From: Thalia democratica
Lineage: Eukaryota
Length of the DNA stretch: 64,000 nucleotides
Direction: 5' to 3'
NCBI GenBank assembly: GCA_965202585.1
Contig: OZ241827.1
Location: 86,490,001 to 86,554,000 of the forward strand
Under the pieces are notes generated by a model that was not told the DNA's origin, made no database searches, and worked only from the letters and a program-made list of their open reading frames with translations. The position numbers were made by a program, and so were the translations under genes. Of this stretch, positions 2,460 through 57,678 are shown in pieces (the stretch's first letter is position 1; each line of letters begins with the position of its first letter).

Positions 2460-4089
2460 ACTAGTCAAGCTAAATCAGTTTTTTATCAAAAGTTGGAAAA
2501 ATTTAGGCTATGATAGTTTTTTTGGGTCAAAATGCGCTAAAGTCTTTTTTTTAGGTTAAAATGACGAAATGTCAGAATTTATCAGCTCTAGTTTTCAAAA
2601 TTCCTTAATTTTCAAAGCCTTAAAATGGTATATTAAATTAAAAAAGTCAGACTAAAATTGCCAAATTTTCCTAGAAACATGTTAAACTATTACCCTATTT
2701 GAAGAAGTAGTTGTTGTATGTTATATTTTTAGTATTAATGATCTGTGGCACGGACACTTCCATAGTAAAAATTTGATATATACACAAAATTGTATTTTGC
2801 AAAATTTTAGAACTCAATTTTTTTTGTTAAATTAACTTATTAAGATCTCTATAATTAAGCACTTAGTTTAGTATATTATGCAACAAGTTTATGGTGATGG
2901 TTTACCTCTTTATACAATTATTTGAGTTCTAAAAATAAGTAAATGCAGATTAAGTAATTTATGTATTTCAAAGTTTTCGTAACAAATAATAGGAAGAAGT
3001 ATTTTATAAAACAGATCAGGGTTGCCACTTAACCTTGAATCCTGGAAAAACCTTGAAAAACCTGAAATTCGATAATTTAGGCGAAAATAACCTGGAAAAA
3101 CCTGGAATTTGAGAAATTTTGAAATGAAACCTGGAAAAACCTGGAATTTTGATCAAAAAACCTGGAAAAACCTGGAGTTTTTAATAATTTTAACATTTTC
3201 AGTACTAAAATTTCAGTTTGACACAAAAAGTCTATCATATAAATAAGATTTTTTGTCATCATCAAAAGATTTTTTTATTGAAAAACACATTTAAAGTAAC
3301 CTTACAGCATCTTTTAAATGTTTTTGTACTCTAAATACAGTTTCTTTTATAGAAATTAACTTAAAACTAAAAATAGACCCAAAAATGTTTACTTTTAGAA
3401 AACCTGGAAAAAATTTGGAAAAAAAGAGTGATAACCCTGAACAGATGAATGGTTTACTTTATTATAATTATTATTAAGTTTTTAAAGTAAGTAAGAGTAC
3501 AAAAAAGTATATTTGATTTTTAGTTCAAGGGTTTTGTTTTATATTATATGAGTGTAATTATTTAATTTATTTAACAGAACATGATTAAGTTTATTTATTT
3601 GTAATATTTGTAGAGTTACCTAGGTTTTGATAATAAATAAGAGTAGATTTCTTTGTAATAAATTTTAATAAGTTAAGTTTTTAAATTACAAGTTTAATAC
3701 AATTTTTTGTTTTGCAAAATTGATTATGATTAAGTTAAAGTATTTTGATTTAAAATTCCCTGCCAGTAGCACAATTGTGACTTTTTGAAATTATTTGCAA
3801 AGAGGCGAGAAAAAAGTATACCTAGATCAGTGCAAAATTTTTATAATTAAGTTTGTATTATTTATTTTTACATTCCAGTATTTTATAATTACAGTTATCA
3901 TTTGCTAAAATTCACTTTTTTTTTATATTGGTCTTGAAATGTGTACTGAATAAGAAGTCAAAATATGGGTACACAAAATGAGTATTTAACTGGAAGTGAT
4001 AAGTTAATACGAACACTTAGAGGAAGGTAAAAGTTGGTCAAAATCTTGAAAAGTCAGGCTAAAATTACAAAATTTTATGTGCAACCCTG
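2460..4089 (+). mobile_element. Long non-autonomous element of the CAGGGTTGCCA family (host of nested MITE 3017-3439)
   Basis: Internal sequence 2500-2830 is homologous to 25150-25540; ends ...GTGCAACCCTG at 4089. The 5' end is degenerate and approximate. Confidence 0.5.
3017..3439 (+). mobile_element. MITE, CAGGGTTGCCA family
   Basis: TIRs CAGGGTTGCCAC / GTGATAACCCTG; internal AAAACCTGGAA repeats; flanked by (A)ACAGAT on both sides. The empty site AACAGAT is at 9493-9499 in the duplicate copy. Confidence 0.9.
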
Positions 4090-36010: not shown

Positions 36011-36692
36011 TGTTTTTTTTATAAAATTTTGAGCATTAATAGTAAAAATAGTACACAAGTTAAATGGTTTTTTTTTGAAACATGCGCTAAATAACATTTT
36101 TATTTATTACAATTACAATGTTTTCAACAGTTGAAAAAGTATTTTTTACTCAAATTTTTTTTTAGATTTGTTTAAAAATTTTGATAGTAAGATTACACAT
36201 TTCTGAAACTGTCATTCTGATTTGTATACAGTAGACTAAAATGGCATAGGAATCATAAAATAGTAATTAATTAAGGTAGATTTAATTATGATGAGTAGTA
36301 CTAATGAATTAAGTGTATCAAAATCTATACTTTAAATCTAACCTAAAATAATATAATTATATAAAAGTTATAGATTAGTGATTTATATTTTCAATAGTTT
36401 AAAAGTATATCATACTTTTAATAAAAATACAATAATATAAAATGAAACTTTTGGTTAAAACAAGTTACGTTTATTCCAAGCTATTTATAAAAGTCACTAA
36501 TATTTCTGAAACAGTGTTGTCATAGTAGTGTTTTGTGGTTCTTTTATATAATAGATACATTAATAAAACTGTCTTTTTGATTAGTATAAAGTAGACTAAA
36601 ATAGCATAGTAATTATAACTTATAATAATTTTAACATCAGACTTTATTTTGTTATTTTTTTAATGAATAAAAGAACACTCAAATTTTTTTCA

Positions 36693-36726
36693 TTCCAATA
36701 TATTTCGTCAAATTCTCTTCAGGGAA
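36693..36726 (-). ncRNA. Minimal type I hammerhead ribozyme motif (inverted arm)
   Basis: Exact reverse complement of 38378-38411. Confidence 0.65.
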
Positions 36727-37354
36727 ACTACAATTGAAACAATAAAATAAAACACAACAAGTATATATACAAAATAATATTTTTTACAAACTAATTAACT
36801 GATCAATTAAGTAAACATAAATGTAATCAACGAAAATGTAATCAACAAAGCTTTAAAAATCAACACAAAGTGGTCTTAACTAAATAAAGCTAGGGTGTAA
36901 TCAAATTCTTTCTTTTTGCATAAGTTTGGTTTGTTTAAATGTATTAAAATGGCTTCAAGTCTGATTAAATCCAATGTATTTGAACATTGTCGCATTACAC
37001 TGAAATTAGATACTGCAAACTTTTTTCCACAACTTGGATTATTCACAAGGTGTTCTGCTATCGCAGATTTTTTTATTGCATTTTTGACCAGCATTTCTGG
37101 ATAACTATTGAGTTTAAGAATTGACTTTATATTGTTAACTTCATCGGATAAGTATTCTGGTGAGCAGATTTTTTGTGCTCTACTGTATAGAGTCTTAATC
37201 AAACCAATTTTTCTACGTTTACTACAGAATGATTGGAAGTTTAAGTAGTTGTTGTTGAAGGTAGGCTTTCTGTATACTTTAGTTGTGAATTTTCTATCTT
37301 TCTTAACAATCAGAACATCGAGAAAAGCTAATTGGTTACTTGTTTCAGATTCTA

Positions 37355-38228
37355 TCAATCCATTAAGTTTACCAAAGAATCTGAAACAAGTAACCAATTA
37401 GTTTTTCTCGATGTTCTGATTGTTAAGAAAGATAGAAAATTCACAACTAAAGTATACAGAAAGCCTACCTTCAACAACAACTACTTAAACTTCCAATCAT
37501 TCTGTAGTAAACGTAGAAAAATTGGTTTGATTAAGACTCTATACAGTAGAGCACAAAAAATCTGCTCACCAGAATACTTATCCGATGAAGTTAACAATAT
37601 AAAGTCAATTCTTAAACTCAATGGTTATCCCGAAATGCTGGTAAACCGAGTAATTAAGTCACAGTCTACCAATTCAAATATAGCCAAACCTTATGGACCG
37701 GATAAATGCCCAATTTTGTTAAAACTTCCATATATTGGTGTCGAATCGAAACTAATTGAGAAGAAAATAGTGGATATAACAAATAAAACATATCATGCGG
37801 TAAATCTTAGGGTTCTGTTCATGTCAAAACCAATACTTCAACGTTCGGGAAAAGACCTGATGACACCTCAAGAAAAGAGTCTTGTAGTTTACAAGTTTAA
37901 ATGCTGCTGTAACAGCAGCTACATTGGTCAAACTTCTCGACACCTCACAACTAGAATAAAGGAACATGTTCCCAAGTGTATCACTTCATATATTAAAGAC
38001 GAAAAGAGTGATGCAGTCAAAAATGCAATAAAAAAATCTGCGATAGCAGAACACCTTGTGAATAATCCAAGTTGTGGAAAAAAGTTTGCAGTATCTAATT
38101 TCAGTGTAATGCGACAATGTTCAAATACATTGGATTTAATCAGACTTGAAGCCATTTTAATACATTTAAACAAACCAAACTTATGCAAAAAGAAAGAATT
38201 TGATTACACCCTAGCCTTATTTAGTTAA
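37355..38228 (+). CDS. Penelope RT C-terminus plus GIY-YIG endonuclease (truncated, no RT catalytic core)
   Basis: SIKFTKE..QLVFLDVLI, TKVYRKPT (RT C-terminal part/thumb); VVYKFKCCCNSSYIGQTSRHLTTRIKEH (GIY-YIG with Cys/His); LEAILI..KPNLC. Confidence 0.9.
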
Positions 38229-38377
38229 GACCACTTTGTGTTGATTTTTAAAGCTTTGTTGATTACATTTTCGTTGATTACATTTATGTTTACTTAATTG
38301 ATCAGTTAATTAGTTTGTAAAAAATATTATTTTGTATATATACTTGTTGTGTTTTATTTTATTGTTTCAATTGTAGT

Positions 38378-38411
38378 TTCCCTGAAGAGAATTTGACGAA
38401 ATATATTGGAA
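38378..38411 (+). ncRNA. Minimal type I hammerhead ribozyme motif in Penelope 3' UTR
   Basis: TTCC-CTGAAGA-G aatttga C-GAAA-TATA-TT-GGAA: stem I TTCC/GGAA, core CUGANGA and GAAA, 1-bp stem II, palindromic ATATAT stem III. This is the expected position for Penelope hammerheads. Confidence 0.65.
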
Positions 38412-39031
38412 TGAAAAAATTTGAGTGTTCTTTTATTCATTAAAAAAAAAATTATAATTTAGTAATTAAATAAGTTAGTATTGATTTATGACTAGTAGTC
38501 CTAACAAATTAAGTATACCATCATCCATGCAAAAATTTATATTTTTTACATGGAATTTTATTAAAAAATTTATTAATTTTGTACTAAATTACTGCTAGTA
38601 ACAAGACTTTTTTCATTTAAATAGTTTATTGAGAAATGCTTTCAAAATTTAAATAATTTCCTTTTCTAAACAAAATAGATACTCACCAACATTAATTAAT
38701 CAAACGAAGTACGAGTAAATAAAACAAACTATCAGTATAAAACTAATCAAATTGATCATAAAAATTAAAATAGATAATTAGAACAAAAATGGACTATCTA
38801 AAAATGTTAAGTGTAATTCTGGATTCTTTATCAGGACCTAGTTGATGATTAAGTTTAGGTTTAATTTTTTTAATCATAATAGCCTCTACTGCAAGTAAAA
38901 TATTTCTATTATTACAAAATTTAGTTACCTCATAACAATTAAAAATATCATTATGATTTTGACAGAAATTACATTTTTCTATATGTGAGAATACTGCACT
39001 ACTTGTAGGCTTTGTATATTCTTTAACTCAG

Positions 39032-42192: not shown

Positions 42193-43381
42193 TGTAAGCA
42201 TTGCGCCTGCTTCGCACTGCTTTTTTGAAGAGAAGAGAGAAATCTTTTTTCTTCGAAAAGCAGACTGCATAAAAATAGACGTCGCAAGAAGGGCGTAGGC
42301 ATTGTTATTATACATTCAGCGAAGAGGCATTCTTATTAGGCATTGTTTATTACACATTCAGCGAAGAGGCATTCTTATTATACAGTCAGCGAAGACGCTC
42401 GATTTAGGCTTTTGAGTTTCACACTTTCAACGGAGACATTTGTCTTACATTCAGCGAAGAGACTTATTTTTCACGTAGCCAGTCCGCATAGACGTTTGAT
42501 CGAGAGATTCAGTTTCAACCCGAAACGAATACCGGCGTTAGAAACCAGCTCGAGACTTGTAGTAGTAAGTCTAGCGATTTGTTGTGGTAACTTAGTTCCT
42601 GAGCTTTTGACCTGCACGAGTGTGAGTGTCTCTTTTTTGTATCGTATTAGTAGTTTTAAGTGTAAAATAAGTTTTGATTTAATAATTCACTATCTAACAG
42701 TTTAATATAACTAACTAAATTTAAAGTTATCTAAGTTAGAATATAGTAAGTTAACGGTTGATTACGAAAGTAGCATTTGTTAAGTATTTACTAATTTTTA
42801 ATTGACTACGGTAAGTGGTCAATATTATACTAAGTCGAGCCTCGTTTAACCATACCTTGTTTCCAGTTCGCATTACTGAGCTCATTCTCGGTTAAGTGCG
42901 GTGAAAAATCAACAGTTCGCATTACTGAGTCCCAACTTGGTTAATTGCGTAGAATTCGTACCAATTCGCTTACTGAGCGTTGACTCGGTTAATTGCGGAG
43001 AATTCTTACCTGTTTGCATTTCTGAGTTCTATCTCGGTTAATTGCAATTGATTTCTTCACGGAAACTCTCCGGTTGGTTATTTCCTTGAAGAATGAGTTC
43101 CAAAAATAGGAATCCCAAAGCCATGTCAGCAACCCGCATCACTGACATGGTCAAGAAGCACACGAAGCGTGCACACTCGGCCGATAAAGCGTCTAGCTTT
43201 AAGAGGCGAGACCAACAAAGTAACTCCGAGCTGTTAGCAGATTCTCACATACCAACATCCAAATCTAATACTGCACAAACTGCAACTACAAATCAGGAAA
43301 CATTCAAAGCAGAACCTAACAATATACACAATAGACAAACAAACAAAGTAGAAAACACAGAATCAACAGCAGAGGGTTATA
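42193..43381 (+). repeat. 5' LTR (1189 bp, TGTAAG...GGTTATA)
   Basis: Matches 54725-55913 at a constant offset of 12532; six substitutions seen by eye. Confidence 0.92.
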
Positions 43382-45069
43382 GTGGCGCCTCTAACCGCCC
43401 GACTACTCCAACCTTTCAAGACACAAATGAGTTTATAACGAAGACGATGACAGAAAAAAAGCGAGAGATGCGCAAAAACTGTTTCCCAGAAGGCGGGTTA
43501 CCATCCATGCCAATGGGAAGTGATTGTGGATCTATGTATCCAGCACCCGGCCACAACCAGGCCGATCACTATTTAGCGCCGGATGATGCTGACGAGTTCA
43601 ATTTGAAACAACAAAACGAAGAACTCAAAGCTCTTTTGAGCGATTGTCGGACAGCGATAGCCAAAGTTACACAAGAAAGGGAGAGAATAAACATGGCTGA
43701 CGCACGATACAACAGTTGTCAAAATAATTACGTTTCACCAGCGTTTGACGCTTTGAACATGAGGGAGGGCCAATGCTCGCAAGAGTACAGACCCTCTGTC
43801 AGAAAAATGACTAATTATGATTTTGACAAAATGGCGAATACGCGATGTAATAGAGGGCCAAATTATCTACCGACTTTCAGAAATTCCAACACCGAAGAAG
43901 AACGTCATGTGCAACAAGCACCTCCCACCAACCAACTCATACATCAAAATGAAACAATGATTATTAAAAATGAGCCGGTTAGGGACGAGCGGCGTATACA
44001 CGTGATGCCTGCCCCCGAAAACATCAACACTAGAGACAGTCGGTACCCGGGACAGTCTAAATTTTGCGACTACCGTGAACCGGTCTACAACAATTTTAAC
44101 GATAATTCGTATATAAATGTTAGCGATAACGATCTCGACCGTAAGTTCCATCGGTTTAGTAAAATTACTAACCCTCGTCAAACCCTGAACTATTTCATCG
44201 GAGAGTTTGAACGGTTGAACGTCACAAACGATAGAACTAAATATAATATCATAGTCGGAAAATGGGTTCCCGACGAAGTATCTCAATACTACGGCTTGAC
44301 CAACCCTGATGATCGTAATTTTCAGACGTTCAAGGAGTTTTGCGAGAAACGTGATAATTTACTGACACCCATCCTCAGCAAACCTCCAGTTCACACGAGC
44401 AAAACACCGTTCAGTACTTACCTAACCGAGGCTACTGAATGGGCATATGCTAAAGAAGATGATCGTGTAAAGTTTTTCCTATACTATCATGCACCCGTCT
44501 CTCTAAAAAGCAGGATTGAAGAGTACTTCTTAGAGGACCTGTCACAATTCAAACGTCGTGTACAATCCATCTGGTCTCGCCAAGATGACGATCACTACGC
44601 ACGGAACCAACAAGTAAATTATGATAGGTCAAGAAGAAACCAAAACCAACGGTTTAGTAGGCGTCGGAATAACGGGAGAGATAATTTCCCTGACCAAAAT
44701 TACATAGATGATGGTAACTACGATCAGAGTTTCGACAATCGAAACCAAGATCATGGTAACAATGGGAACTACACCCAAAACTCCAATAACCGAAACCGGT
44801 ACCACGGAAACGGTAACAATAACAGACGCAATTACAACGCTCGAAACCAGAATTACGGTAACAATAGTAACTATGGCCGTAACGCCAATGGCAGGGACCG
44901 AAACTACAACAACGACTCCGGTAACGAACGTGATTATAACAACAGAAGAAACTTCAATAACGATTACAATGACCACCGTAATGTCACCCATTCAAATGAG
45001 CCTCCTTCCAGGCCGAATAATGTTAACAATTACCCACAACAGGAAAACTCCCTCCCACCCTCGCAGTAA
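43093..45069 (+). CDS. gag: Gag, 658 aa
   Basis: Long ORF upstream of pol; capsid-like block FSKITNPRQTLNYFIGEFERLNVTNDRTKYNII; N/R/D/Y-rich C-terminus; no CCHC knuckle seen. Confidence 0.85.
   Translation: MSSKNRNPKAMSATRITDMVKKHTKRAHSADKASSFKRRDQQSNSELLADSHIPTSKSNTAQTATTNQETFKAEPNNIHNRQTNKVENTESTAEGYSGASNRPTTPTFQDTNEFITKTMTEKKREMRKNCFPEGGLPSMPMGSDCGSMYPAPGHNQADHYLAPDDADEFNLKQQNEELKALLSDCRTAIAKVTQERERINMADARYNSCQNNYVSPAFDALNMREGQCSQEYRPSVRKMTNYDFDKMANTRCNRGPNYLPTFRNSNTEEERHVQQAPPTNQLIHQNETMIIKNEPVRDERRIHVMPAPENINTRDSRYPGQSKFCDYREPVYNNFNDNSYINVSDNDLDRKFHRFSKITNPRQTLNYFIGEFERLNVTNDRTKYNIIVGKWVPDEVSQYYGLTNPDDRNFQTFKEFCEKRDNLLTPILSKPPVHTSKTPFSTYLTEATEWAYAKEDDRVKFFLYYHAPVSLKSRIEEYFLEDLSQFKRRVQSIWSRQDDDHYARNQQVNYDRSRRNQNQRFSRRRNNGRDNFPDQNYIDDGNYDQSFDNRNQDHGNNGNYTQNSNNRNRYHGNGNNNRRNYNARNQNYGNNSNYGRNANGRDRNYNNDSGNERDYNNRRNFNNDYNDHRNVTHSNEPPSRPNNVNNYPQQENSLPPSQ
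43383..43397 (+). promoter_or_regulatory. Primer binding site (TGGCGCCT...)
   Basis: TGGCGCC lies one base after the 5' LTR end and is absent after the 3' LTR. The first 7-8 nt resemble tRNA-Lys-type PBSs; primer identity is not established. Confidence 0.7.
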
Positions 45070-45090
45070 CGCGAGGCTCAGGGGGTGGGG
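45042..45090 (+). promoter_or_regulatory. Putative -1 ribosomal frameshift signal
   Basis: G GAA AAC heptamer (45042-45048) followed by hairpin CCTCGC-agtaac-GCGAGG, extended by CCCAC/GTGGG; the -1 frame is open for ~105 codons. Confidence 0.6.
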
Positions 45091-45476
45091 TTAAAAAGTC
45101 TCGTGTTAGATTCGCCGAAGATACCCCAAAAACCTGTAATATAGGTTATGGCCGATCTAACATATCTGATTCTGTACATACTTCACAAGAGGGAAATTCC
45201 CTTAATTCAAATGTATATATCCCGGAAACACATGTTGATAGAGACCTAGAGAAGGAACGCAAACATTATACAGGAAGCAAAAATTCCGTTTCTTCACAGG
45301 ATGTAGATAGTAGCGGTCATCAAGCAAAATTGAGATTATTGTCGATAAGACGCCAAACATAATTCCTGTTGTACATAAAAAAATGAATACGCCTGGTTGC
45401 TCGAAGAACTATCAAGAAACCAATCAGGTTAAAAATTCTAACATTCATGATAACGCTCCGATAAATAAAGCGTTAC

Positions 45477-45980
45477 ATTCAAATGTCCATGATGAGGACA
45501 AAGCCGAGCCAAATTGCTCGAAGAACCACTTGGATAATGATACTCCGAATGAGTTTTCCCTTCATGATGTTTCTGAAGAAGAAACATTGATCTTTCATCC
45601 AAATGTCCATGATGAGGACAAAGCCGAGCCAAATTGCTCGAAGAACCATTCGGAAAATGATACTCCGAATGAGTTTTCCCTTCATAATGTTTCTGAGGAA
45701 GAAACATTGATTTTTCATTCAAATGTCCATGATGAGGACAAATCCGAGCCAAATTGCTCGAAGAACCATTTGGAAAATGATATTCCGAATGTCGTTTCCC
45801 TTCATAATGTTTCTGAGGAAGAAACATTGATTTTTCATTCAAATGTCCATGATGAGGACAAATCCGAGCTAAATTGCTCGAAGAACCATTTGGAAAATGA
45901 TATTCCGAATGTCGTTTCCCTTCATAATGTTTCTGAAGAAGAGACATTGGTCTCTCATTCGAATGTCCATTGTGAAGACA
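45477..45980 (+). repeat. Coding 120-bp tandem repeat x4 (+partial) upstream of the protease
   Basis: AATGTCCAT recurs at 45482, 45602, 45722, 45842 and 45962; unit NVHDEDKAEPNCSKNHLENDTPNEFSLHNVSEEETLIFHS. Confidence 0.95.
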
Positions 45981-48900
45981 ATAGGATCCAAATCTGCTCG
46001 ACGAGTCCCCAAACATCCCTGGGAAAGGAGGAGGAGCCTCCCAAAAGAACAGGAGAGAAGACAAGTCTTCTTGAACCACCGGAACCTGAACCTCCACCCG
46101 AATCGTCCTTAAACATTAAGGCCCAAACTGAGAACAGCTGGATTTTCGAAATCAGAAAATCCATGAAAATTAACAAAAGAAGTCTGCCTCAACAGTTGTT
46201 ATATGTTGTGGACAGCACCTCGGGCGTCATTTTTATCATTGACTCGGGAGCCGAGATTTCCCTCATTCCCAAGTCATTGACAAATGGCATAGACCATTAC
46301 TTCCGCCCCAAAACTCAGACCATTACGGGAATCGGAAACTCTCTAATCTATCCCGTGGGCAGCACAGATGTATGCTTGAAACTAGGGGACCTTGACGAAA
46401 TAAAGCACACATTATGGGTAACACAGGAAAAAATAGTCTATGGTATCATAGGTCTCGACTTATTGCGTCCACACCAGCTAGTTATTTCACCATTTACGGC
46501 CAAACTGATCAGCAATCTTACAAATCGCTCAGCTGACTTGTATACGGCTGAAACCTTGCCGGCTTCGACGTTTAACGCTACCCAAGATGAAAATAACCAC
46601 AATGAGACAAAAAGTCTAGAAGATCAATGCACACAGATGCTAGATAGATACCCTGAATTAACTGAGTACCCCGATTACACTAAACCGGTTAAACATAACC
46701 ATGTTCTCGATATAATCGTAGATAACTTTCAACCAAGACTAGTCAAAGCCCGTAAATGCAACGGCGCCAAGAGGACTGCAGTGGTTGAGAACTTCGCGGA
46801 TCTCGTACAAAGAGGTGCAATGTCACGTGGTATAGCTGACATGTGTGCCTCTCCAATTACCATTGTGCCAAAAAAGGATGGCTCAATGAGGATCTGTGTG
46901 GATTACTCGTTCCTTAATGCTCACACTCGACCATTGTCGTATCCTCTGCCTAGGATCGATGACCTCCCTGAGATCGTACCAGGAGGAACAAAATTCTTTA
47001 GCAATCTAGACTTAAAGGAGGCGTACTATAGCCTGCCCATACACCCAAGCTCGCGTGATTATGCAGCCATCGTTGCTCATCATGGGGTATTCGTTACTAA
47101 TCGAACTACATTTGGTTTGAAGAATGCCCCCATGAGATTCCAGCAGATGATGGAATGCATTTTATCACCCTGTGCACAATTTATTTTCGTATATCTGGAC
47201 GACATTCTGGTATTCAGCTCATCTGAAGACAAACATCTAGAACACTTGGAAAAAGTTTTCCAGACCTTGAGCAAACACGGCCTTTATCTGAATAGAAAAA
47301 AGTGCGTTTTTGCCAAGTCTAAAGTTAACTTTCTAGGCCATTCGGTAGGCGTAGATAGTATTGACATCTTAGAAGAAAAAGTCAAGGCAATCAAAGAGTT
47401 GCCCATGCCAGGGAATAGAAAGGAACTTAAAAGGTTCCTCGGTATGGTCAACTATTACTTTGACCACATCCCAAAGTTAGCTGAAACGACTAAACTTCTA
47501 AATGAAGTTTCAGGGGGCCCAAAATCTACCAATAGGAAACCTCTGAAACTGAATGACGCACAAATATTGGCTTATCATAAAACAATCGACGCGTTAGCAA
47601 ACGCCGCCACTCTAGCGTTTGAACACCATGGCAAACCACTGATTATCTACTGCGACGCAAGCGATACACATATCGGCGCCGTGCTCGAACAAGAAGGGAA
47701 TGACGGAGAGCGGCGACCTCTAGCATTTTTTTCCAAGAGCTTATCGCCCCTCAAACGCGTCCGCTAAACTTTTTATAAAGAGTTACGAGCACTATATGTA
47801 AGCATCAGACACTTTCAGAGTCGGATAATAGGTAGGGATCTTATTATCAGGACGGATAGTCAGTCTGTGGAGAAAGCTGTTAATAATCCTTTAGGGAACC
47901 AGTCTCCTACAGAGCAACGTTATATAGTTGCCATAAAGGAGTACAACCCCACTGTCATATACATTAGTGGCAAAGACAATCAAGGAGCCGACTATATGAG
48001 CCGGCAACCGCCCCCAAAAGTACTATACGCTAGATCATACTATGACGATCCAGACTACATCTGTAGCTCTTCGTCAGAGTCTGAAGACTCAGAGTCTGAA
48101 AATGACGTTTCAGAAGAAGAAGAGCAATTGATAACTGCTAATTCTTTAAATAGAACAGAAATAGCAAGACTACAAAAAGGAGAACGGGATCTTATCGACC
48201 AAGCAATAAAACTAGAGAAAACGGTTGAATATGAAGACCCTGAGGACATTGCGATCATTCGAGAAGAAGGAAACGCTAAAATCATACTGCCCACTCTACT
48301 ACGCCTCACAGCGTTTGAGATAGCTCACGGATATATACATCTTGGTAAAGAAAAATCCGTATTAGCTACCTCTAAAGATTATTGGTGGCCAACGTTAGTC
48401 AAAGACGTTGAGTATTGGTGCAAAACCTGCGTCGATTGCCAGGCTACGAAAGTAACCAGGTATAATCGACCCAGGATAGGGTTCTTTCCAGATAAAAATG
48501 AACGTTTCCAATACGTTCACATGGATCTGGTGGGTCCTTTGAGGACAACATCAGAAGAGAACCGATACATCCTGACCGCCAAAGACCGGGGTACCGGTTT
48601 CTTGGTGACTGCACCAATCAAAAACAAGAAAGCCGAAACCGTTAGAAACGCTTTTATACAAGTATGGTGCGGAGTGTTTGGCGTTCCACAGGTTGTTGTC
48701 ACCGACAACGGAAAAGAATTTAAGAATTCCGTTGTTACAACCGCTTTTGAACAATTAGGTATCGATCATCACTTTGTACCAGTATATAGCCCTTCTTCAA
48801 ATGGTATCATCGAGAGGCAGCATCGAACAATCAATGTGGCTCTCCGAGCTTTAACCGAAGAAACGAACTGGAGTTTACATCTTCCATTAATCACTGCTGA

Positions 48901-51678
48901 AATTAACAACGCATTTTTGGAGGGCTCTCCGTTTACACCGTCACAGTACGCATTAGGTGTCTGCACGAACCTTAGCGGCCGCGTACTGTTTAACAAAGTA
49001 GGAAATGAGAAAACGGAAGCCGGTGTTTTTGATACCCTACGCTTTTTGTTTTCCATGTCGGGAATTTCCCGAAACCATAAGAAACACTACAACAAATCTA
49101 TATATTACGAGCCTGATTTATTTCAGTGTGAGAAGATTTGGCTCAAAAACCCCACGAAAACGCACCTCAGCCCATTATATAGCGACCCTTATCCAGTTCT
49201 AGCAGCAAGTGATTGCTCGATGATAATACAAAAAAACAGTCGTGTGGTAAAAGTTCCTATAAAATTGGTAAAGGGTTACTACCCTCGAGAAGATTTGAAT
49301 GCAAACGGGGAAAAACAGGGACGAACCCACCGCTATTACTTACGAGAACAAAATATAACTCAAAAGTACAATGAAGAAAACTCGGGAAGTGACACTGAGT
49401 AACTTATAGTTGAAGAAACGAATAACCGTCGCCTTAAATCAACAACTTTTCATTATGCGAATGTTTCTCAAAATAAACCTCGAGAGAAACCTCGATTTCA
49501 AACGATTTCTATGGTTAATAATTTGCAAAATTTTTTTTTCATTATTAAAACCATATTTTAGTGCATAATTTACGTTACTATGCATTAAACGTTAAATTCT
49601 CTGACATCTACAATTACGATTCTTTGTTATAATACATGATACTTCTAACAAAACTGAAGTTGCATATTGTATAACTTTAAACATTTCATTTCGAGTACAT
49701 TATACAAGTATTGTTGTAAACAAAAATGCGAATTTATACAGTAAACATCGAATCGACGTAGTTAAAAACGCAGTTTTGCATTGGTTGCAAGCTAGAAATA
49801 ACATACCTAATGAACAAAAAAGTATTGAATTTTTTTTTCGCTTTTGCTACTTAACTATTAGTGATTGATATCTAATACCGTCATTACTTTTATAAGCTAC
49901 TCGTGTTCTGTATATGAAATAATTTCACAACATTCTGTCTGCATACAAAAAATTACCAAATCGAAGCTAACAGGCATATGTAAACAAAGGCAAATGTTTT
50001 TTTTTCATTTGCAAACAGTTTAATTACGTCTTTTGACATCTTTTAATGGCAAACACAGTGTATTTAAAACTCAAATGTTTCCTTAAGTGATATAAAAAAG
50101 TTTCGAGTTTTAGCCGAATTCGGTTAAACCGTAAAAACCGCAAAACGAAATTTGTTTAACTACTAGATTTAGTTACATTACTTTTAAAACAAATTTCATT
50201 TCGCAGCAAATGCATTACAATAACAACTACTGAATTACAAACTAAAAGCTCGAACGTTGTTTTTAAAATGCTTCTGTGTGAAAATTTTATCGAAATTCAA
50301 GCGAAACATTGCGTTGTAAATCATTGCCACTCATAAACTTGAATCGAAACTTTCTGTTTTTACTTCAAAAAATTCAGTGTTTGAAAATTACTTTTGCAAC
50401 CACAACGATAAGTATTTTAAAGGGAGTAAGAAGTTGAAACGCTCCAAACCTCCAAACCAGAATAATTGATAAAAAAATACAACTTTTCAACGCCATTAAA
50501 AAACGTAAAATACAGCTGCATTAATTTTGAATTGTTGAAGTCTAGTAATAGATGCTTAACTTCGTGGGAAGTCGTAAAATTCGTTTCATTATTTCAATTG
50601 TTTTTTGTTTGTTACGTAAACATCGAAACAACCAAAAATAACTTTAACGATTGAAACGAAGTTACAGACTAGTAAAAATAATACATTAAAATCACATTAG
50701 CGAGTTCGAGACTAATTATCATTAGTTAACTATCGCACACGTAGCTAAAAAAACTAACTTCAGATAGTAAAAATAATGGTCGTCAATATTTTTAAACAAA
50801 AAATACTTATGTTTCTAAAAAAAGAATAGCAACTAAACCTTAGTTGAGCTTACATAGTTATGCCGAAAAATTTAAATTAAAAGGAAATTTAAGTTGCAAA
50901 CTATTGAACCTTGTTGACTATACGGTTCAAAAGTTAGTAATTTGCGAAATCTACTTGGTCTTTTCGGTAATTAAATTAGCGTTTTGTGTATCTAGGGAGT
51001 CTTTAATTTATAACGAGTTTTTTACTTGAAACGCAAGTAACTAAAAATTTAGCAAATAGCAATAAGAAGCTACTAAGTTCAATTATCGGACGAGTTTCTT
51101 TGAAAATGAAATTTTTTTTGATACAATTTTTGCTCTCATACATGCCGCCAAGTTTATTGATACTGCTTGAAAACAAGACGCGATGGGAGTTCACTTAGTC
51201 GTTATTCTCTTGTGCACTCACTTGTAAATTCTTTCTTTTGCAAATTGATGAATGCATTTCACTTTTTAAATTCATTCACTAATAGCAGTCATAGCGGTAG
51301 CACGTTGATTTTGGTATAAGTCAACATTTTAAGTTTGTTCAAAATATTCTTAACCTTATAGTTTCGTTAACTTTTTGTTTTCTTTAGAATTCATTCTAAA
51401 AATCTTGAGGTATTAATCAGCCTTATTGTAGATTCTTGTTTGAATTAAAAAAAAAACAATATTATTTTAGAGTTAACTGTCAGTGAAATACTAAATACAG
51501 CCTTCGTTAATAGCCTATTGCTACAGAATAAGGTTAAAATAGTACACTATAAAACCGAATATTCATTTTCTTCTTTAAGTAGTTTCTTTGTACCACTTCA
51601 CGTTTGTATTAATTGTATTAATTGTAATACGTTCGTGTTGGTTGTATAACGTCAGTACAACTTACCTTGTTTTTCAAA

Positions 51679-52401
51679 ATGGTCTTCGATGTAAATCGTG
51701 TATCTTCTGACCTGCAACAAGCAGCGCAGACGATACAACGTATTCGAGCGAGTCTCCAACCACGGGACTCGCACTACCGACATGCTCGCCCTATCTTTAC
51801 CGAGAGACATTACTTGGGCAATACGAGCACCTATACACACGAACCTCAAACAATCAGACGCCAACTGCCGGCGTGCAATGATGAAGATTACTGTCCTAGA
51901 CCGGGCAACAGAAGACCCCCTACAGGAAGAACTTCGCCGTTTCAAGTTAGGCAAGATCAGACGTGCAACAGCTTCACGGGACATCAAGTTCCGAGAAGAC
52001 CTCCTTGCTCAACGGAGGCAATTATATCACCTCAATCCAGATTTAGCAGTGACTCCGATTCGCCTAACGGCGAAGGAGCACCTCTTGACTGGGCAGTGAT
52101 GCTGTCCGACGCCATTTCATGGCTGTCGGACGCCATCAGAGGGTGGCAAGCAGCCTTTCAGGCCTCGCACCTAACCCCTCTAACTGCTGAGGAAAGAACA
52201 AAACTTTCGTTCCTCAGAGTGATGAACAATTCTCTGGGGAATCAGATTAGCTTCATGTTGAACATGGACGACGTGAGCCGCAGTAAAGTCGAACGTGTCC
52301 AAGTAAAACATGAATCGTCCACCCAGACACTGGGTAACGACGGTGCAGCAAGTCTTACGTCAGGGAATTCCCCTGACGTGATAGAAGACAATGCCACTTA
52401 A
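51679..52401 (+). CDS. Accessory ORF inside the LTR element, 240 aa, unknown function
   Basis: ATG in AAAATGG context; GC-rich island between integrase and the 3' LTR; no signal peptide or TM segment; overlapped by a second open frame 51698-52099. Confidence 0.55.
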   Translation: MVFDVNRVSSDLQQAAQTIQRIRASLQPRDSHYRHARPIFTERHYLGNTSTYTHEPQTIRRQLPACNDEDYCPRPGNRRPPTGRTSPFQVRQDQTCNSFTGHQVPRRPPCSTEAIISPQSRFSSDSDSPNGEGAPLDWAVMLSDAISWLSDAIRGWQAAFQASHLTPLTAEERTKLSFLRVMNNSLGNQISFMLNMDDVSRSKVERVQVKHESSTQTLGNDGAASLTSGNSPDVIEDNAT

Positions 52402-53289
52402 CAGCGTTGGTATGTGTTCCGATTCTGTACATAGTGTTTTGCTCACCAAAAACTTAATTAACAACTTGGTCTCAATGTTTATTGAACCATGTTTAGACCA
52501 TTGACCATGTCTTGGTTTAAATGTTGATTAAATTCACATCGTAATATTGTGTATATAATCATAAATATTTCTTTCAAATAACTAGTTTTCCTTGATATCA
52601 AATTAACACCAAACAGCTAATTTTTTTCGTTTACTTCTTATACAATATTTACATTTGCTATTAAGTCAATTTACAACTTAGTTTAATTTTTATTGGACCA
52701 TAATTATACCATTGACCATGTTCTGGTTTATAGTAATTGATTTTGCATTGCATATAGTTTATACATAACTACGAATGATTCACCATATCTAATAAATTGA
52801 TATTTTCGTTCGTACCTCAAAAATTAACCCATTCATTGAATGGCTTAAATTATCGATATCTGTCAACATATTTATCTAATCTTAGACTGAAGTATCACTC
52901 CCACTAATGCTATGAGAACATTCCTAAGATCTGTCATCATCAGATACGACTTGGTTTTCACATTATGTAAAAATCTTATTTACTTCTACTCTCCCAAAGC
53001 TACCTTTGACCACAAGGAAAGCGAAATAAGAGAGGAATTGCGAAGGCATCAATCAGAAATTTGTCGCTCTCCAGAGCGACGTTAACGGTTTACACCTGGG
53101 AAGTTTGAAGATCTTTTCGGAAATAAATACGTTAAAAGAGAACGGCAACACAGTTGCCAATCGGCAAACCACCAGTCGCGGTAAAAAAAAAGACTGGTGG
53201 TAAAACAAACAGATCGCGAAGAGGTCAAACCGATTTAACCCAGGGCCAGAGAAGCGAGACAATCAAGCCAGAGGATCAGTGTTCCACTC

Positions 53290-53410
53290 CAGCAACAACC
53301 AGTCGGACATCAACAACCAGTCGAACAGCAACAACCAGCCGGGCAGCAACAACCAGCCGGGCAGCAACATCCAGTTGGGCAGCAACAACCAGCAGGGCAG
53401 CAACAACTGG
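53290..53410 (+). repeat. 18-bp tandem repeat x6.5 (CAGCAACAACCAGCCGGG)
   Basis: All three frames are open across it (QQQPAG / ATTSRA / SNNQPG). Confidence 0.9.
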
Positions 53411-53559
53411 ACACAGGAGGACCAGCGAGAGGTAATCCAGAAGAAAAGAAAAAGACATTTTAACAATTGACGATTAAACGCACGCGAATAACGCGCAATA
53501 GGGACCAATTTTTTTGTTTTTTTTTGATTAACTTTTTATTCCTTATAGCACTACGTTTT

Positions 53560-54035
53560 ATAGATTTTTTGGAGAAATTTCTCTAACGTTTTTGAACAAT
53601 TTTAAATGAAGTAAATATTGTTAGTATTAATCACTTCACTTTAATGTACTAGAGCTTTAACTTTTTAGATAAATTTCTCTAACGTTTTATAAACAATTTT
53701 AAATGAGGTAAATATTGTTAGTATTAATCACTTCACTTTAATGTATTAGTGCTTAAACTTTTTAGAGAAATTTTTCTGAAGTTATAGACAATTTAAAAAA
53801 GCAAATGTTGTTAGTATTAACCACTTCACTCTAATGTATTAGTGCTTAAACTTTTTAGATAAATTTTTCTGAAGTTTTATAGACAATTTAAAAAAGTAAA
53901 TGTTGTTAGTATTAACCACTTCACTCTAATGTATTAGTGCTTTAACTTTTTAGATAAAATTTTCTAATGTTTTATAGACAATTTAAAATAAATAAATGTT
54001 GTTAGCATTAATCACTTCACTCTAAAGTATAGTGT
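53560..54035 (+). repeat. ~95-bp tandem repeat x5 in the element's 3' region
   Basis: GTTAGTATTAA(T/C)CACTTCACT at 53620, 53717, 53810, 53905 and 54001. Confidence 0.9.
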
Positions 54036-54705
54036 CCTTAACAAGTTTTGCCTTTTATAGCGTGCGTTTTCTTGTTAATTGCCGTACTGTCCATGTTAAC
54101 AGAGTTTTACAAATTTCTGAAATTTAACATCTAACAGATTTTTTTTCAAAGTAATTCTACTTTGTGTATACTCTATATCAGTATTCATGTTCTTTACAGA
54201 TTAAGAACTTTCGATAATTAATCAATGATATCGTATTATTGTAAATTGTACTTCTCATATGTGTTTTAGATTTTTGTTATTAGATATTAAAAACTTGATT
54301 TTAAGGGTTTCTTAAAAAGTTTAGAACGTTTTTCAGATAATGTTGTCTAGCTGTTATGTTTTGTTAGATTCTGCAATCTTTACCTTAGATTAAATTTAAA
54401 GATTTTTTTAGTACCAACCATTGATGTAAGTTGAAACCACTTTTACATTAAACTCTACCAAATACCAAATCGTTTTCCACTACAAGTGGTTTGTAAATTA
54501 CTTTTTGTATTTGTGAATTTGTTTGTGAATTTGTAAATTACTGGGTTATAATACCTTTGCATGTTTAGTTTTTTTCTTTTCACTTTTTTGCGTTAGTATT
54601 ATCAAAGCTCAGGAATTAGTAATTGACCACACAAATCCACGGCATTCAGAAAGAAGGACCCTGTCCTGTTATTTCTTTAAAAAAAAATAAAAATAATTAA
54701 AATTT

Positions 54706-54724
54706 AGGGGATGGCAGGTGGCGG
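54706..54724 (+). promoter_or_regulatory. Polypurine tract
   Basis: AGGGGATGGCAGGTGGCGG abuts the TG of the 3' LTR. Confidence 0.75.
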
Positions 54725-55913
54725 TGTAAGCATTGCGCCTGCTTCGCACTGCTTTTTTGAAGAGAAGAGAGAAATCTTTTTTCTTCGAAAAGCAGACTGC
54801 ATAAAAATAGACGTCGCAAGAAGGGCGTAGGCATTGTTATTACACATTCAGCGAAGAGGCATTCTTATTAGGCATTGTTTATTACACATTCAGCGAAGAG
54901 GCATTCTTATTATACAGTCAGCGAAGACGCTCGATTTAGGCTTTTGAGTTTCACACTTTCAACGGAGACATTTGTCTTACATTCAGCGAAGAGACTTATT
55001 TTTCACGTAGCCAGTCCGCATAGACGTTTGATCGAGAGATTCAGTTTCAACCCGAAACGAATACCGGCGTTAGAAACCAGCTCGAGACTTGTAGTAGTAA
55101 GTCTAGCGATTTGTTGTGGTAACTTAGTTCCTGAGCTTTTGACCTGCACGAGTGTGAGTGTCTCTTTTTTGTATCGTATTAGTAGTTTTAAGTGTAAAAT
55201 AAGTTTTGATTTAATAATTCACTATCTAACAGTTTAATATAACTAACTAAATTTAAAGTTATCTAAGTTAGAATATAGTAAGTTAACGGTTGATTACGAA
55301 AGTAGCATTTGTTAAGTATTTACTAATTTTTAATTGACTACGGTAAGTGGTCAATATTATACTAAGTCGAGCCTCGTTTAACCATACCTTGTTTCCAGTT
55401 CGCATTACTGAGCTCATTCTCGGTTAAGTGCGGTGAAAAATCAACAGTTCGCATTACTGAGTCCCAACTTGGTTAATTGCGTAGAATTCGTACCAATTCG
55501 CTTACTGAGCGTTGACTCGGTTAATTGCGGAGAATTCTTACCTGTTTGCATTTCTGAGTTCTATCTCGGTTAATTGCAATTGATTTCTTCACGGAAACTC
55601 TCCGGTTGGTTATTTCCTTGAAGAATGAGTTCCAAAAATAGGAATCCCAAAGCCATGTCAGCAACCCGCATCACTGACATGGTCAAGAAGCACACGAAGC
55701 GTGCACACTCGGCCGATAAAGCGTCTAGCTTTAAGAGGCGAGACCAACAAAGTAACTCCGAGCTGTTAGCAGATTCTCACATACCAACATCCAAATCTAA
55801 TACTGCACAAACTGCAACTACAACTCAGGAAACATTCAAAGCAGATCCTAACAATATACACAATAGACAAATAAACAAAGAAGAAAACAGAGAATCAACA
55901 GCAGAGGGTTATA
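54725..55913 (+). repeat. 3' LTR (1189 bp)
   Basis: Copy of 42193-43381, followed by TSD TCAA; includes the first 96 codons of gag. Confidence 0.92.
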
Positions 55914-57678
55914 TCAATTAAAAAAAAGGTGGATCCTTAACATTTTTTTAATGTAAAACAAAAAACACTTGAAAATAAGTTTAACTCCCTGTTTTATTGG
56001 TATAACTTAACATCTAAAATACTTTAGTCGTTTTTTACAGGACATTATCCAACTGGACAAAATTTCCGCTTGATATATGGCTAAAAAACCAAGGAGTTTA
56101 AACTAACCAAACTGGAAAAATTTAAACTGGTCAAAAAGTTTTTCTGCAAAATATTATAAAAAATATAAAGAAATAAAAAATAATTAAGCTTAAATTTTAA
56201 CAATGTAATTATGATTTTCGTTAAAAGTTATTAATAAGTATATAAGCTAAAATACACACGTAATATCGCTATAAAAAAATTAAACAAAACTAAAAAATAT
56301 TCTCAAATAAAAAATACTATTGTAATTCGTTAAAAACATTGTAATTGTAATATAAAAGTGTGTTAATTAACTGTTTTTTTAGTGCAGATTTCAATAAAAA
56401 TTACTTTAACTTTTGTCTTTGTCAAATATGAAAGCTTAAAATTTGACATAAAAACACTAGTATAGTTTCTTTTTCGGCATATATACTAATCTTATATATG
56501 TTCTGAAATAAACTAATACTTTATTAAAAAGTTTCAAACTTTGTAATTGTGTTATCAAACTGCTTATCTAGCGTTTATTTCAATAAATAAACATACGTTT
56601 AGGCCAGCATCTTGTACTGGGTTGACTTTTTTTTATAATCGAGTGTCGCTTATAATAATAATAGTCCTATATTCTTTTTGTACTTGTTAAATACACAATC
56701 TACACTCATAACTTTTACCTAGAGTGCAATTTTTCAAGAAGGCAATATGAAAAAGACTAATTACCTTTATTATGTATTCAGATACCTCTTAATCATTTTA
56801 TAGACTGTGTATGACATTTGTACCTCCATTTTCAGAAAATTTACAAACATTGGTTTCTATTTATTTTTCTAATTGTTTTGTCATCTTCGTTTCCAAGTAA
56901 AACTTATTCGATATTAGTTTGCTCACAATCCGCACATTAAATCAAATTTATTAATATAAACATAAATAGTTTAGCAAAGTAAACTTACAAATAGCTTAAA
57001 GTTTTTGTTTCTGTCCTTAAACACCGAAACAATTTATCTGGTCGTTTAATTTTTGCATTTTCCTAAATGAGCCCCTTTTCACTCCTTATAAACTTTTGTA
57101 AAAGACAGCCTTCAAAAATTTTAACATCTAACAAAATAATTTTTGATAAATGGTAAATAAATAAAACGAAAAGCTTAAAGAATTAACTAAAAGCTTGTCC
57201 TAATAACAATTTTAAACATAGGTTTTAAAATTTAACATTGCAATAAATATAATGGTGTTGTCAACTTTTTGGTAACTTTATTGTTAATATTATCTCAATA
57301 ACCTGGTCGTGTAACACATTTCCTGGTTTTAAAGTTTTGTACTCATTGTTATTTATTTATAAAACTGTCGTTTCATCATTAATTTAAGCTTAATATTAGA
57401 TAACACTTACAAAAACTTTACTTTCTTTAGCTTGCATAATTTTTAAGATTATATATTGCAATGAACTATTAACTCTTTTAGAAGCTACATAATTATTAAT
57501 ATACCGAACCTTTTTTTTTTGTAGTATTAAGGCTTATAGTGTCACATTTCAAAGTCTTGCAGTGTTCCATCAAGTGGAATCTTTTTATAAGATTTAAAAA
57601 AAAAACTTAATAGTCAAACTTCTCACCTTGAATTTATGTTAATAAAATCTTTTGTTTGATTAATTTCATCGTCTAGGT

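Follow-up and report, generated by a model that had tools for sequence, protein, structure and literature searches.

Complex vertebrate retroviruses carry accessory genes around env: lentiviruses have vif and vpr before it and nef after it, and foamy viruses have tas and bet. Env-bearing retrotransposons of invertebrates are portrayed as elements with three genes. Among the closest described systems are the Ty3/gypsy "ancient errantiviruses" with an HSV/gB-type envelope (Chary and Hayashi, eLife 2026, PMC13524379). The prefilter for these admitted pol-env gaps of at most 1 kb, a limit that was afterwards raised by hand to 3-5 kb. The words "accessory", "extra ORF" and "splic" have no occurrence in the main text of that paper. 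LTR retrotransposons with additional ORFs that replace env or lie before or after it have been reviewed (PMC6431247), and aORFs are described for plant LTR retrotransposons (PMC7264820). In the Oikopleura Tor elements, the downstream gene is expressed via LTR splicing (Tor3a) or from an internal promoter (Tor3b/4b) (PMC4402516). Other Ty3/gypsy-type elements have non-env accessory proteins whose function or location has been shown (RNA export; nuclear; cell-to-cell transfer), namely CERV of C. elegans Cer1 (PMC10309623) and sORF1/sORF2 of Drosophila MDG1-group elements (PMC11952523). Lastly, LTR-mediated retroposition of host mRNA has been described by Tan et al. 2016 (PMC5131818).

We analyzed a window of 64,000 nucleotides from Thalia democratica (assembly GCA_965202585.1, contig OZ241827.1, positions 86,490,001 to 86,554,000) whose features are collected in Table 1. 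The element it contains is of the Ty3/gypsy type, with the POL domains protease, RT, RNase H and integrase in that order (Pfam), and in the window copy pol is interrupted by an in-frame stop at 47765-47767, in RNase H. The gag start sits within the 5' LTR, and a Pfam search with the 658-aa gag-position ORF gave no match. In sister copies the primer-binding site is TGGCGTCCT, and an 18-nt version of it, at C2:34.46M, is matched by the tRNA-Asn(GTT) genes of the host. As originally predicted, about 2.2 kb of AT-rich DNA (27-29% GC) follows the integrase and is succeeded by a GC-rich island (43-48% GC); the spacer is likely to act in cis. Of the other integrase families, the closest one has 9 loci (72-74%), and no env was found there within 10 kb of sequence examined.

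Table 1. Features of the element in the window (positions are those of the whole stretch).
Feature	Position	Strand	Remarks
Target-site duplication TCAA	42189..42192; second copy 55914-55917	+	
5' LTR, 1189 bp, TG...TA	42193..43381	+	99.5% identity to 3' LTR, 6 mismatches
Splice donor GTAAGT (42811) and strong acceptor (42866)	42811..42866	+	predicted 56-nt leader intron or major subgenomic donor
gag-position ORF, 658 aa	43093..45069	+	named from position; dN/dS 0.37
Primer-binding site, tRNA-Asn	43382..43395	+	diverged in window copy
pol (protease, RT, RNase H, integrase)	45314..49402	+	Pfam RVT_1, RT_RNaseH_2, Integrase_H2C2, rve
AT-rich non-coding spacer	49403..51288	+	retained by internally deleted copies
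ATG-free ORF-X leader, 424 nt	51255..51678	+	P about 0.01, dinucleotide shuffle
ATTCATTCAC motif, shared with 5' end of host H2B genes	51277..51288	+	H2B-capture junction; candidate internal start site
Splice-acceptor-like site	51362..51387	+	kept in 4/4 sister stretches; triplicated in C10 copies
ORF-X, 240 aa	51679..52401	+	predicted N-terminal amphipathic helix (5-29), disordered linker, predicted helical hairpin (136-193)
+1 frame, 105 aa from ATG (87 aa in ENA relatives)	51782..52099	+	function unproven
Donor-like GTATGT, 9 nt past ORF-X stop	52410..52415	+	kept in 3/3 sisters
Deletion junction, 2906-2915 bp	52993..52994	+	env and 5' two-thirds of ORF-Y gone
ORF-Y 3' remnant, broken	52994..53470	+	end of coiled coil, basic patches, 18-nt repeats
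Tandem repeats, ~95 bp unit	53566..54041	+	3' non-coding region
Purine-rich tract preceding 3' LTR	54706..54724	+	putative polypurine tract
3' LTR	54725..55913	+	

The original prediction pictured an env-less element with a 5.3-kb region after the integrase. Instead, a deletion has taken env and most of ORF-Y, another accessory gene, out of this region: at 52993/52994 the window copy lacks about 2.9 kb that its sisters hold. An assembly artefact is ruled out by a DNA contig, possibly itself a source of the assembly, that crosses this junction with no differences. We also rejected the idea that deletion junctions are copied splice junctions, as the 51284-52280 joint has 5 nt of microhomology and no GT-AG ends. 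In all three env-bearing sisters, an env of 568 aa and then ORF-Y lie downstream of ORF-X. In the sister env (best 19-residue Kyte-Doolittle mean 2.34), the N terminus bears a hydrophobic segment and the C terminus a TM segment, and the fold of this env matches herpesvirus gB (E 4e-19, TM about 0.25) and also mononegavirus G proteins. Its neighbors in the ESM atlas are Rhabdo-G/Monjiviricetes clusters (score 0.97, recognition low), and a PDB sequence search with env gave no match. ORF-Y is about 400 aa long (in L015 and L012, 393-410 aa when counted from the first ATG) and combines a coiled coil with two basic patches; its Pfam search found no match.

The attributes of a gB-type errantivirus envelope (signal segment, gB-like ectodomain, TM anchor and a position after pol) are all found in the three sisters, and the LTRs, target-site duplication and tRNA primer site of such elements are present as well. 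The window copy, with its env deleted, is a derivative rather than an intact member. The family reads as a gB-type errantivirus, a known kind, of the order gag-pol-X-env-Y with accessory genes flanking env. With env standing between X and Y in the sisters, the family layout resembles that of a complex retrovirus. A literature search, mostly outside subscription journals, found no description of accessory genes around env in this layout. The case also illustrates a trap: what looks like an "env-less element" carrying a mystery ORF may have arisen by deletion.

ORF-X, predicted as a 240-aa ORF with LSDAISWLSDAIRGW, is present and beyond chance. Its proposed status as a non-env accessory gene is borne out by conservation in the sisters and the lack of any Pfam match, and its best 19-residue Kyte-Doolittle mean of 0.82 agrees with the predicted absence of a TM helix. 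The per-frame dN/dS analysis suggested at the time points to purifying selection specific to frame 0. In comparisons of 12-42 differences each between related, non-independent copies, dN/dS is 0.19 for residues 1-34 (p 0.003) and 0.29-0.39 for the C-terminal part (p 0.001-0.012), against 0.84-2.3 in shifted frames; controls gave 0.14 for env, 0.15 for integrase, 0.37 for gag and 0.44 for ORF-Y. By these measures X, env and Y are under purifying selection. Relative to sister copies, ORF-X has no indels with 34 substitutions, while its flanks have 19 indels with 68 (p 0.0015). The ATG-free leader (P about 0.01) likewise speaks for ORF-X as a real gene.

These data bear on the reading of ORF-X as a captured host or nested-element fragment in neutral decay, an origin that had been named beforehand as contradicting the prediction. 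The family does take host mRNA in the same region (H2B), and ORF-X is a GC-rich island that is lost or truncated in most copies. However, a genome search, which gives lower bounds, found no other source for ORF-X, and frame-specific selection with zero indels between element copies also argues against decay. We consider a captured fragment very improbable.

The C-terminal domain of ORF-X is found at four places in the genome (the window and the three env-bearing sisters) and is absent from nine other, env-less family loci, a co-loss of X and env that is partly due to adjacency and shared descent. Among the 13 family loci examined, the full 240-aa frame is assembled in the window copy only; full-length 240-aa relatives exist elsewhere (P0013 and P0016, 83-85% identity). 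In the C10 copies the frame begins only at codon 112, and in the C2:34.46M copy it is interrupted; the N-terminal half may thus be dispensable. The second match in a search of representatives, P0014 (E 2e-5), was rejected because it is a repeat protein. No related loci were found in JGI metagenome scans or an IMG/VR scan.

ORF-X would have to be expressed from a subgenomic RNA. Five signals had been proposed for such an RNA and all are present. The donor at 42811, the acceptor at 51387 and the donor at 52410 are conserved, whereas the acceptor at 51579 and the Inr-like TCAGT motif (51652) are changed in both sister stretches holding the region, which are near-duplicates and represent one locus. 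Donor 42811 is kept in the window and six close sister LTRs and changed in the distant copy L046; when 274 AG sites are ranked with a simple pyrimidine score, acceptor 51387 comes third, beyond chance. Splicing of this donor to this acceptor, which would allow translation of ORF-X, seems slightly better than an even bet against an internal promoter near 51260-51285, and the donor is also explicable by the 56-nt leader intron alone. A search for sequencing runs that contain 51300-53560 found no RNA run; the two runs examined are contigs of a single sample whose behavior is that of DNA.

An RNA that begins at such a promoter rather than arising by LTR splicing, as for env in Oikopleura Tor3b/4b (PMC4402516), is a serious contender at somewhat less than even odds. 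The ATG-free zone, also seen in four sister stretches (394-421 nt), extends about 130 nt upstream of the acceptor and includes a ATTCATTC motif resembling one just before the host H2B start codon. In addition, the LTR donor has its own nearby acceptor, and four kinds of junction cluster at 51268-51288. Conversely, no TATA-like box was found by eye about 30 nt upstream, the acceptor at 51387 is strong and conserved, and the H2B junctions are explained by microhomology alone. Splicing into 51387 is the route that we narrowly favor.

The same region shows a separate phenomenon: sister copies have captured host histone H2B mRNA at 51288, probably twice. A literature search for H2B capture, mostly outside subscription journals, found no matching paper. 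The H2B inserts resemble the retroposition described by Tan et al. 2016 (PMC5131818) in that they take the place of internal genes, are joined where a short sequence is shared and multiply non-autonomously; here the same host gene was apparently taken twice at the same junction. This repeated capture offers a clean natural case of template-switch retroposition.

A second gene had been proposed to overprint ORF-X. The stop-free +1 run is present at 51695-52099 (134 codons; 105 from the ATG at 51782), but its length is within chance. Given the ORF-X protein, synonymous shuffles yield a run of at least 134 codons with P about 0.18 and an ATG frame of at least 87 codons with P 0.23-0.30; the run reaches P 0.012 only when amino-acid order is shuffled too. 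For comparison, gag holds a 119-codon shifted frame at P 0.73. The +1 ATG and a 78-codon core are kept in relatives, but the stop position shifts (105, 87 and about 78 codons), and the frame is gone from two of the three env-bearing sisters (the C10 copies) and cut in the third. By hand count, 7 of 19 differences in the overlap are synonymous in the +1 frame, not clearly above neutral, and 5 of 19 in frame 0; selection on the +1 frame is not significant. A Pfam search with the +1 protein gave no match, and neither this protein (best hydropathy 0.57) nor ORF-X (0.82) has the single TM segment with a polybasic tail of an sORF2/FAST-like small fusogen. Because its length is within chance and its stop varies, the +1 frame is unproven, and it is most likely a by-product of the hydrophilic ORF-X linker.

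Alternatively, leaky scanning or stop-restart on one RNA might give three products: full X, a +1 protein of 78-105 aa, and a short X that begins at codon 112. L015 and the ENA proteins P0056/P0057 (77-80% identity) retain the +1 ATG, and Met-112 occurs in P0013, P0015, P0016 and the C10 copies, the last of which start there. The +1 composition is also the more ordinary one (25 versus 11 hydrophobic residues in 87), a chance-open frame 0 would have P 0.001-0.005 if +1 were the gene, and the frame-0 synonymous share is lower in the overlap (5/19) than in the flanks (16/29; p 0.07; hand count). The shuffles, the moving stop, the synonymous share and the loss from sisters all speak against three products, as does the strong context of the first ATG. 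We regard this arrangement as unlikely.

For ORF-X the structure model is low-confidence (pLDDT 38.7) and too poor for a fold search, and searches of Pfam (no match) and the ESM atlas (no usable match) yielded no remote homolog, so its function is a guess from anatomy. All env-bearing sisters keep the C-terminal helical hairpin while the N-terminal half is missing or interrupted there, and hence the hairpin may be the working part. We propose, with a probability of about 0.6, that ORF-X, placed between pol and a gB-type env in a gag-pol-X-env-Y errantivirus, is an accessory gene under selection, that a 2.9-kb deletion stripped env and most of ORF-Y from the window copy, and that its own subgenomic RNA would encode a non-enzymatic helical adaptor for an envelope-dependent stage. 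Such an adaptor might conceivably act in particle release or in RNA traffic by binding to membranes or to proteins of virus or host, and might be dispensable for moving a copy in trans.

The original prediction suggested an anti-silencing or export factor, which would make ORF-X a nuclear regulator, Rev/CERV-like in the case of export. ORF-X residues 187-197 hold one hydrophobic pattern that fits a nuclear export signal, although such patterns are common by chance. Several internal splice signals would create a need for export of unspliced RNA, as provided by CERV for Cer1 (PMC10309623). However, the conserved domain lacks a basic cluster, a Cys loop and any arginine-rich stretch for RNA binding, ORF-Y is a better fit for a nuclear role with its coiled coil and two basic patches, and X-less copies have multiplied, though help in trans is possible. 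A nuclear role for ORF-X is unlikely but carries some weight; the envelope-stage adaptor is the reading that we prefer.

Extra genes are not confined to this family, as a post-env ORF is carried by five of nine env families examined in the genome. Apparent post-env ORFs of families F-I were rejected as the beginnings of gag that lie within the 3' LTR (observed for F versus L062/L063, presumed for G, H and I). Family B carries a 107-aa pre-env ORF with no homology to ORF-X and a 692-aa post-env ORF with no homology to ORF-Y, and selection on its accessory ORFs is not significant (p 0.06-0.53). Pfam searches with the small ORFs of other families gave no match. That five of nine families have further orphan genes around env, some clearly selected, suggests that this clade, too, gained accessory genes of the kind found in complex retroviruses. 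These genes are concrete small candidates for RNA export, host defense or particle release by such elements. A bolder version seems improbable to us, namely that a Ty3/gypsy lineage independently became a complex retrovirus, with accessory genes that flank a class III env and are swapped between families, a pre-env locus whose one subgenomic RNA yields three proteins, and an internal look-alike of a cap site through which H2B mRNA is drawn in again and again.

How does this family compare with known systems? With the gB-type errantiviruses as described in PMC13524379 it shares a Ty3/gypsy-type pol, LTRs, a tRNA primer site and an env after pol that combines a signal segment, a fold like that of gB and a TM anchor, and the N-terminal motifs of the sister envs resemble the tunicate C3 rows of that paper by eye, unaligned. 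It differs in the 3.2-3.5 kb that separate pol from env in the sisters and contain an accessory gene, in the further accessory gene after env, and in that the window copy has no env. The primer here is tRNA-Asn, which is named in none of the 15 tunicate rows of PMC13524379, several of which are given as "others". Extra ORFs around env are a known cargo of the additional-ORF elements (PMC6431247), but these are described there as occasional captures, whereas here two unrelated orphan genes under purifying selection flank env and different families of one genome carry different extra genes. The Oikopleura Tor elements (PMC4402516) are also env-bearing LTR elements with the same two options for expression, but their env is of the F type (table of PMC13524379) and the passages on Tor in PMC4402516 mention no accessory ORF. 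Unlike the family here, Cer1 and the MDG1-group elements have no env, and ORF-X has neither the TM segment of sORF2 nor the Cys loop of CERV, and no sequence link to either was noted. Complex vertebrate retroviruses belong to another lineage and fusogen class, and the likeness is one of layout only: in both, accessory genes stand on either side of env.

The window holds a deletion-derived member of a Ty3/gypsy family (family A) that bears env and two accessory genes. In a genome search we found at least five places for ORF-X, the frame downstream of integrase. Three sister elements (C10:13.85M, C10:22.50M and C2:34.46M) have an extra 2906-2915 bp between the matches to window positions 52993 and 52994; within it lie an ORF of 568 aa and the beginning of another, ORF-Y, which is about 400 aa long. 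A public-run contig, from a run that the assembly may itself have been built from, spans the 52993/52994 junction with zero differences, and therefore the deletion exists in DNA. Genes of the family are ordered gag-pol-X-env-Y; what remains in the window after the loss of env is the 5.3-kb post-integrase region.

Features of the window element and of family-A copies carrying histone H2B (C, place in the same genome; L, locus)
Feature	Position	Remark
LTRs, 1189 bp each	42193-43381 and 54725-55913	6 mismatches between the pair
Target-site flanks	both sides of the LTR pair	TCAA
In-frame stop in pol	47765-47767	
ORF-X	51679-52401	240 codons
Stop-free +1 frame over ORF-X	51695-52099	
Broken tail of ORF-Y	52994-53470	
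H2B copies L069-L073, L094	C8:49.107M, C1:62.424M, C10:15.754M, C5:52.122M, C7:9.793M, C2:34.474M	

The gag-position ORF starts inside the 5' LTR, and Pfam matches place protease, RT, RNase H and integrase in the Ty3/gypsy order. The primer site of the sister copies matches host tRNA-Asn(GTT). The gag frame opens about 290 nt inside the LTR (43093-43381), and the 3' LTR likewise opens a gag-start frame (55625-55913) that runs into host DNA; such frames from the 3' LTR seem to occur in other families as well. Five of the six LTR mismatches fall within this gag-start stretch. Upstream of the element, two nested perfect inverted repeats (36682-38422; arms of 407 and 270 nt) may represent either a foldback element or a local inversion.

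The 568-aa ORF of the sisters is an envelope protein, hydrophobic at both ends and with conserved cysteines. Its closest atlas clusters, at a low recognition score, are rhabdovirus-G/Monjiviricetes fusogens. Structure prediction (pLDDT 71.5) gives a fold that matches herpesvirus gB at E 4e-19, yet with a TM of only about 0.25, and that also matches mononegavirus G proteins. ORF-Y, which has a relative of 53% identity in ENA, is disordered; its middle is coiled-coil-like and it bears two basic patches. Compared with ORF-X, it makes the stronger candidate nuclear regulator.

The original prediction had placed a 240-aa frame without a transmembrane helix in a GC-rich island, and we find all of this: the frame is where it was described, transmembrane segments are absent, and the island (43-48% GC) follows about 2.2 kb of 27-29% GC. 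ORF-X has no match in Pfam. We conclude from four lines of sequence evidence that it is a real gene. First, in a small number of comparisons among related copies, dN/dS against sisters is 0.19 (p 0.003) for codons 1-34 and 0.29-0.39 (p 0.001-0.012) for the C-terminal part, with 0.84-2.3 in shifted frames and, for comparison, 0.14 for env, 0.15 for integrase, 0.37 for gag and 0.44 for ORF-Y. Second, ORF-X has 0 indels with 34 substitutions versus 19 with 68 in its flanks (p 0.0015). Third, two relatives in ENA are each 240 aa long and 83-85% identical. Lastly, the 424 nt upstream of its start codon contain no ATG (P about 0.01), and the ATG-free leader measures 394-421 nt in four sister stretches.

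Of the 13 family loci examined in the assembly, the window alone has ORF-X complete: in the C10 copies it starts at codon 112, and in the C2 copy it is interrupted. We find the C-terminal domain at no fewer than four places in the genome, the window and the three env-bearing sisters. A further variant is present in public-run contigs at about 3x single-copy depth, with the middle of the ORF covered gap-free. In L015 (positions 3200-3480; C2:34.459M), an LTR end together with an 18-nt tRNA-Asn primer-site copy breaks up ORF-X; the joint lies at a TGGGC microhomology and creates a 194-aa gag/ORF-X fusion frame, in what looks like a mis-aimed plus-strand transfer.

Dual coding of this region had also been proposed. 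The stop-free +1 frame is indeed present (105 codons when counted from the ATG at 51782), but its status as a gene is unproven, as the run length is within chance and the stop varies. When synonymous codons were shuffled with the ORF-X protein fixed, a stop-free +1 run of at least 134 codons arose in 18% of trials, since few linker residues have codons that create +1 stops. A comparable shifted frame of 128 codons, at the low-complexity end of gag (44708-45094) and present in sisters, is expected by chance (P 0.73). The +1 start is conserved and an 87-aa version is called in ENA; the stop lies after 105, 87 or about 78 codons. In favor of a product, the +1 protein has the more ordinary composition, and the conserved Met-112 of ORF-X adjoins the +1 end in relatives. 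By a hand count that listed 16 of the 20 differences of one contig, the 19 readable differences in the overlap include 5 synonymous in frame 0 and 7 in +1. The frame-0 bias is lower in the overlap than in the flanks (p 0.07), which would fit dual coding or a relaxed linker alike. We consider a functional +1 product unlikely.

All five motifs proposed to drive a spliced subgenomic mRNA are in the sequence. Two of them, acceptor 51579 and the Inr-like TCAGT at about 51652, are not supported as signals: both sister stretches that hold them have them altered. Donor 42811 is present in the window and six close LTRs and altered in one distant copy, and a strong acceptor lies 56 nt 3' of it. Acceptor 51387 comes third of 274 on a simple score, and all four of four sister stretches retain it; donor 52410 is kept in three of three sisters. 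The simplest route to an ORF-X RNA would be splicing from the LTR donor to 51387. Almost equally likely is transcription from an internal promoter: upstream of acceptor 51387 the ATG-free zone goes on for 130 nt, across a motif resembling the host H2B 5' end, and the portion of PMC4402516 available to us describes both routes in use by Oikopleura Tor elements.

We propose that ORF-X is produced from a subgenomic RNA, that a C-terminal helical hairpin, predicted at low confidence, is its working part, and that it may act as a non-enzymatic adaptor during an envelope-dependent stage, because it is co-retained with env and missing from nine env-less loci. These loci were still copied, presumably with help in trans. 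The tie to the envelope-dependent stage is weak, because X and env are neighbours and their losses share ancestry.

In six family-A copies, the coding sequence of host histone H2B replaces X, env and Y. Five are joined at window 51288 through a 10-nt motif, ATTCATTCAC, common to the host H2B 5' end, and the sixth (L094) is rearranged upstream. The 118-aa H2B frame is open in three of the six. The H2B of L073 groups with another host paralog class, is without three private changes of L070 and has a different right junction; because tree, private sites and right junctions point that way, L073 is likely a second capture. Amino-acid changes in the element copies suggest that the inserts may be passengers. 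The captures follow the mechanism described in the part of Tan et al. (PMC5131818) available to us. Our literature search, of incomplete coverage, found no description of H2B capture by an LTR element.

An env search of the genome gave at least 133 matches, and we read loci of nine env families. A post-env ORF is present in five (A-E) and a pre-env ORF in two (A and B), which fall within one supported env clade; in the other four we saw only short frames, or frames that are gag starts within the 3' LTR. No homology was detected between the accessory ORFs of A, including ORF-X and ORF-Y, and those of B. Family B (L026, L028, L054-L056, L107-L110) has a 107-aa ORF before env and, after it, a disordered, coiled-coil-like ORF of 692-734 aa, open in most copies. 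The diverged families D and E (L031-L034, L114-L117) have in common a post-env ORF of 79-84 aa that opens with an Arg/Ser-rich segment, contains a YQVxxR motif and ends hydrophobic; it may encode an RNA-binding or tail-anchored peptide. The 121-aa post-env ORF of family C (L037, L060, L061, L111-L113) is acidic; of four comparisons, the best gives a dN/dS of 0.22 (p 0.002) and the rest 0.42-0.85. Seven loci (L048, L050, L052, L099-L102) form a non-autonomous subfamily. Its members retain the AT-rich spacer and a gag frame, which in five of them stays open for 645-658 aa, lack RT and integrase, and carry an expandable repeat of 120 bp where pol starts. L062 and L063, present in many copies, have gag, no pol and a short env-like ORF of 266 aa.

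According to the portions available to us, a gB-type env in Ty3/gypsy elements has already been published (PMC13524379), and elements are known to capture additional ORFs occasionally, ahead of env or behind it (PMC6431247). In the literature covered, which is incomplete, we came upon no gB-type element described as having selected accessory genes on both sides of env. Functional non-env accessory proteins have been described, in the excerpts seen, for Cer1 of C. elegans (CERV; PMC10309623) and for Drosophila MDG1-group elements (sORF1/2; PMC11952523). Those elements are env-less, whereas family A is env-bearing.
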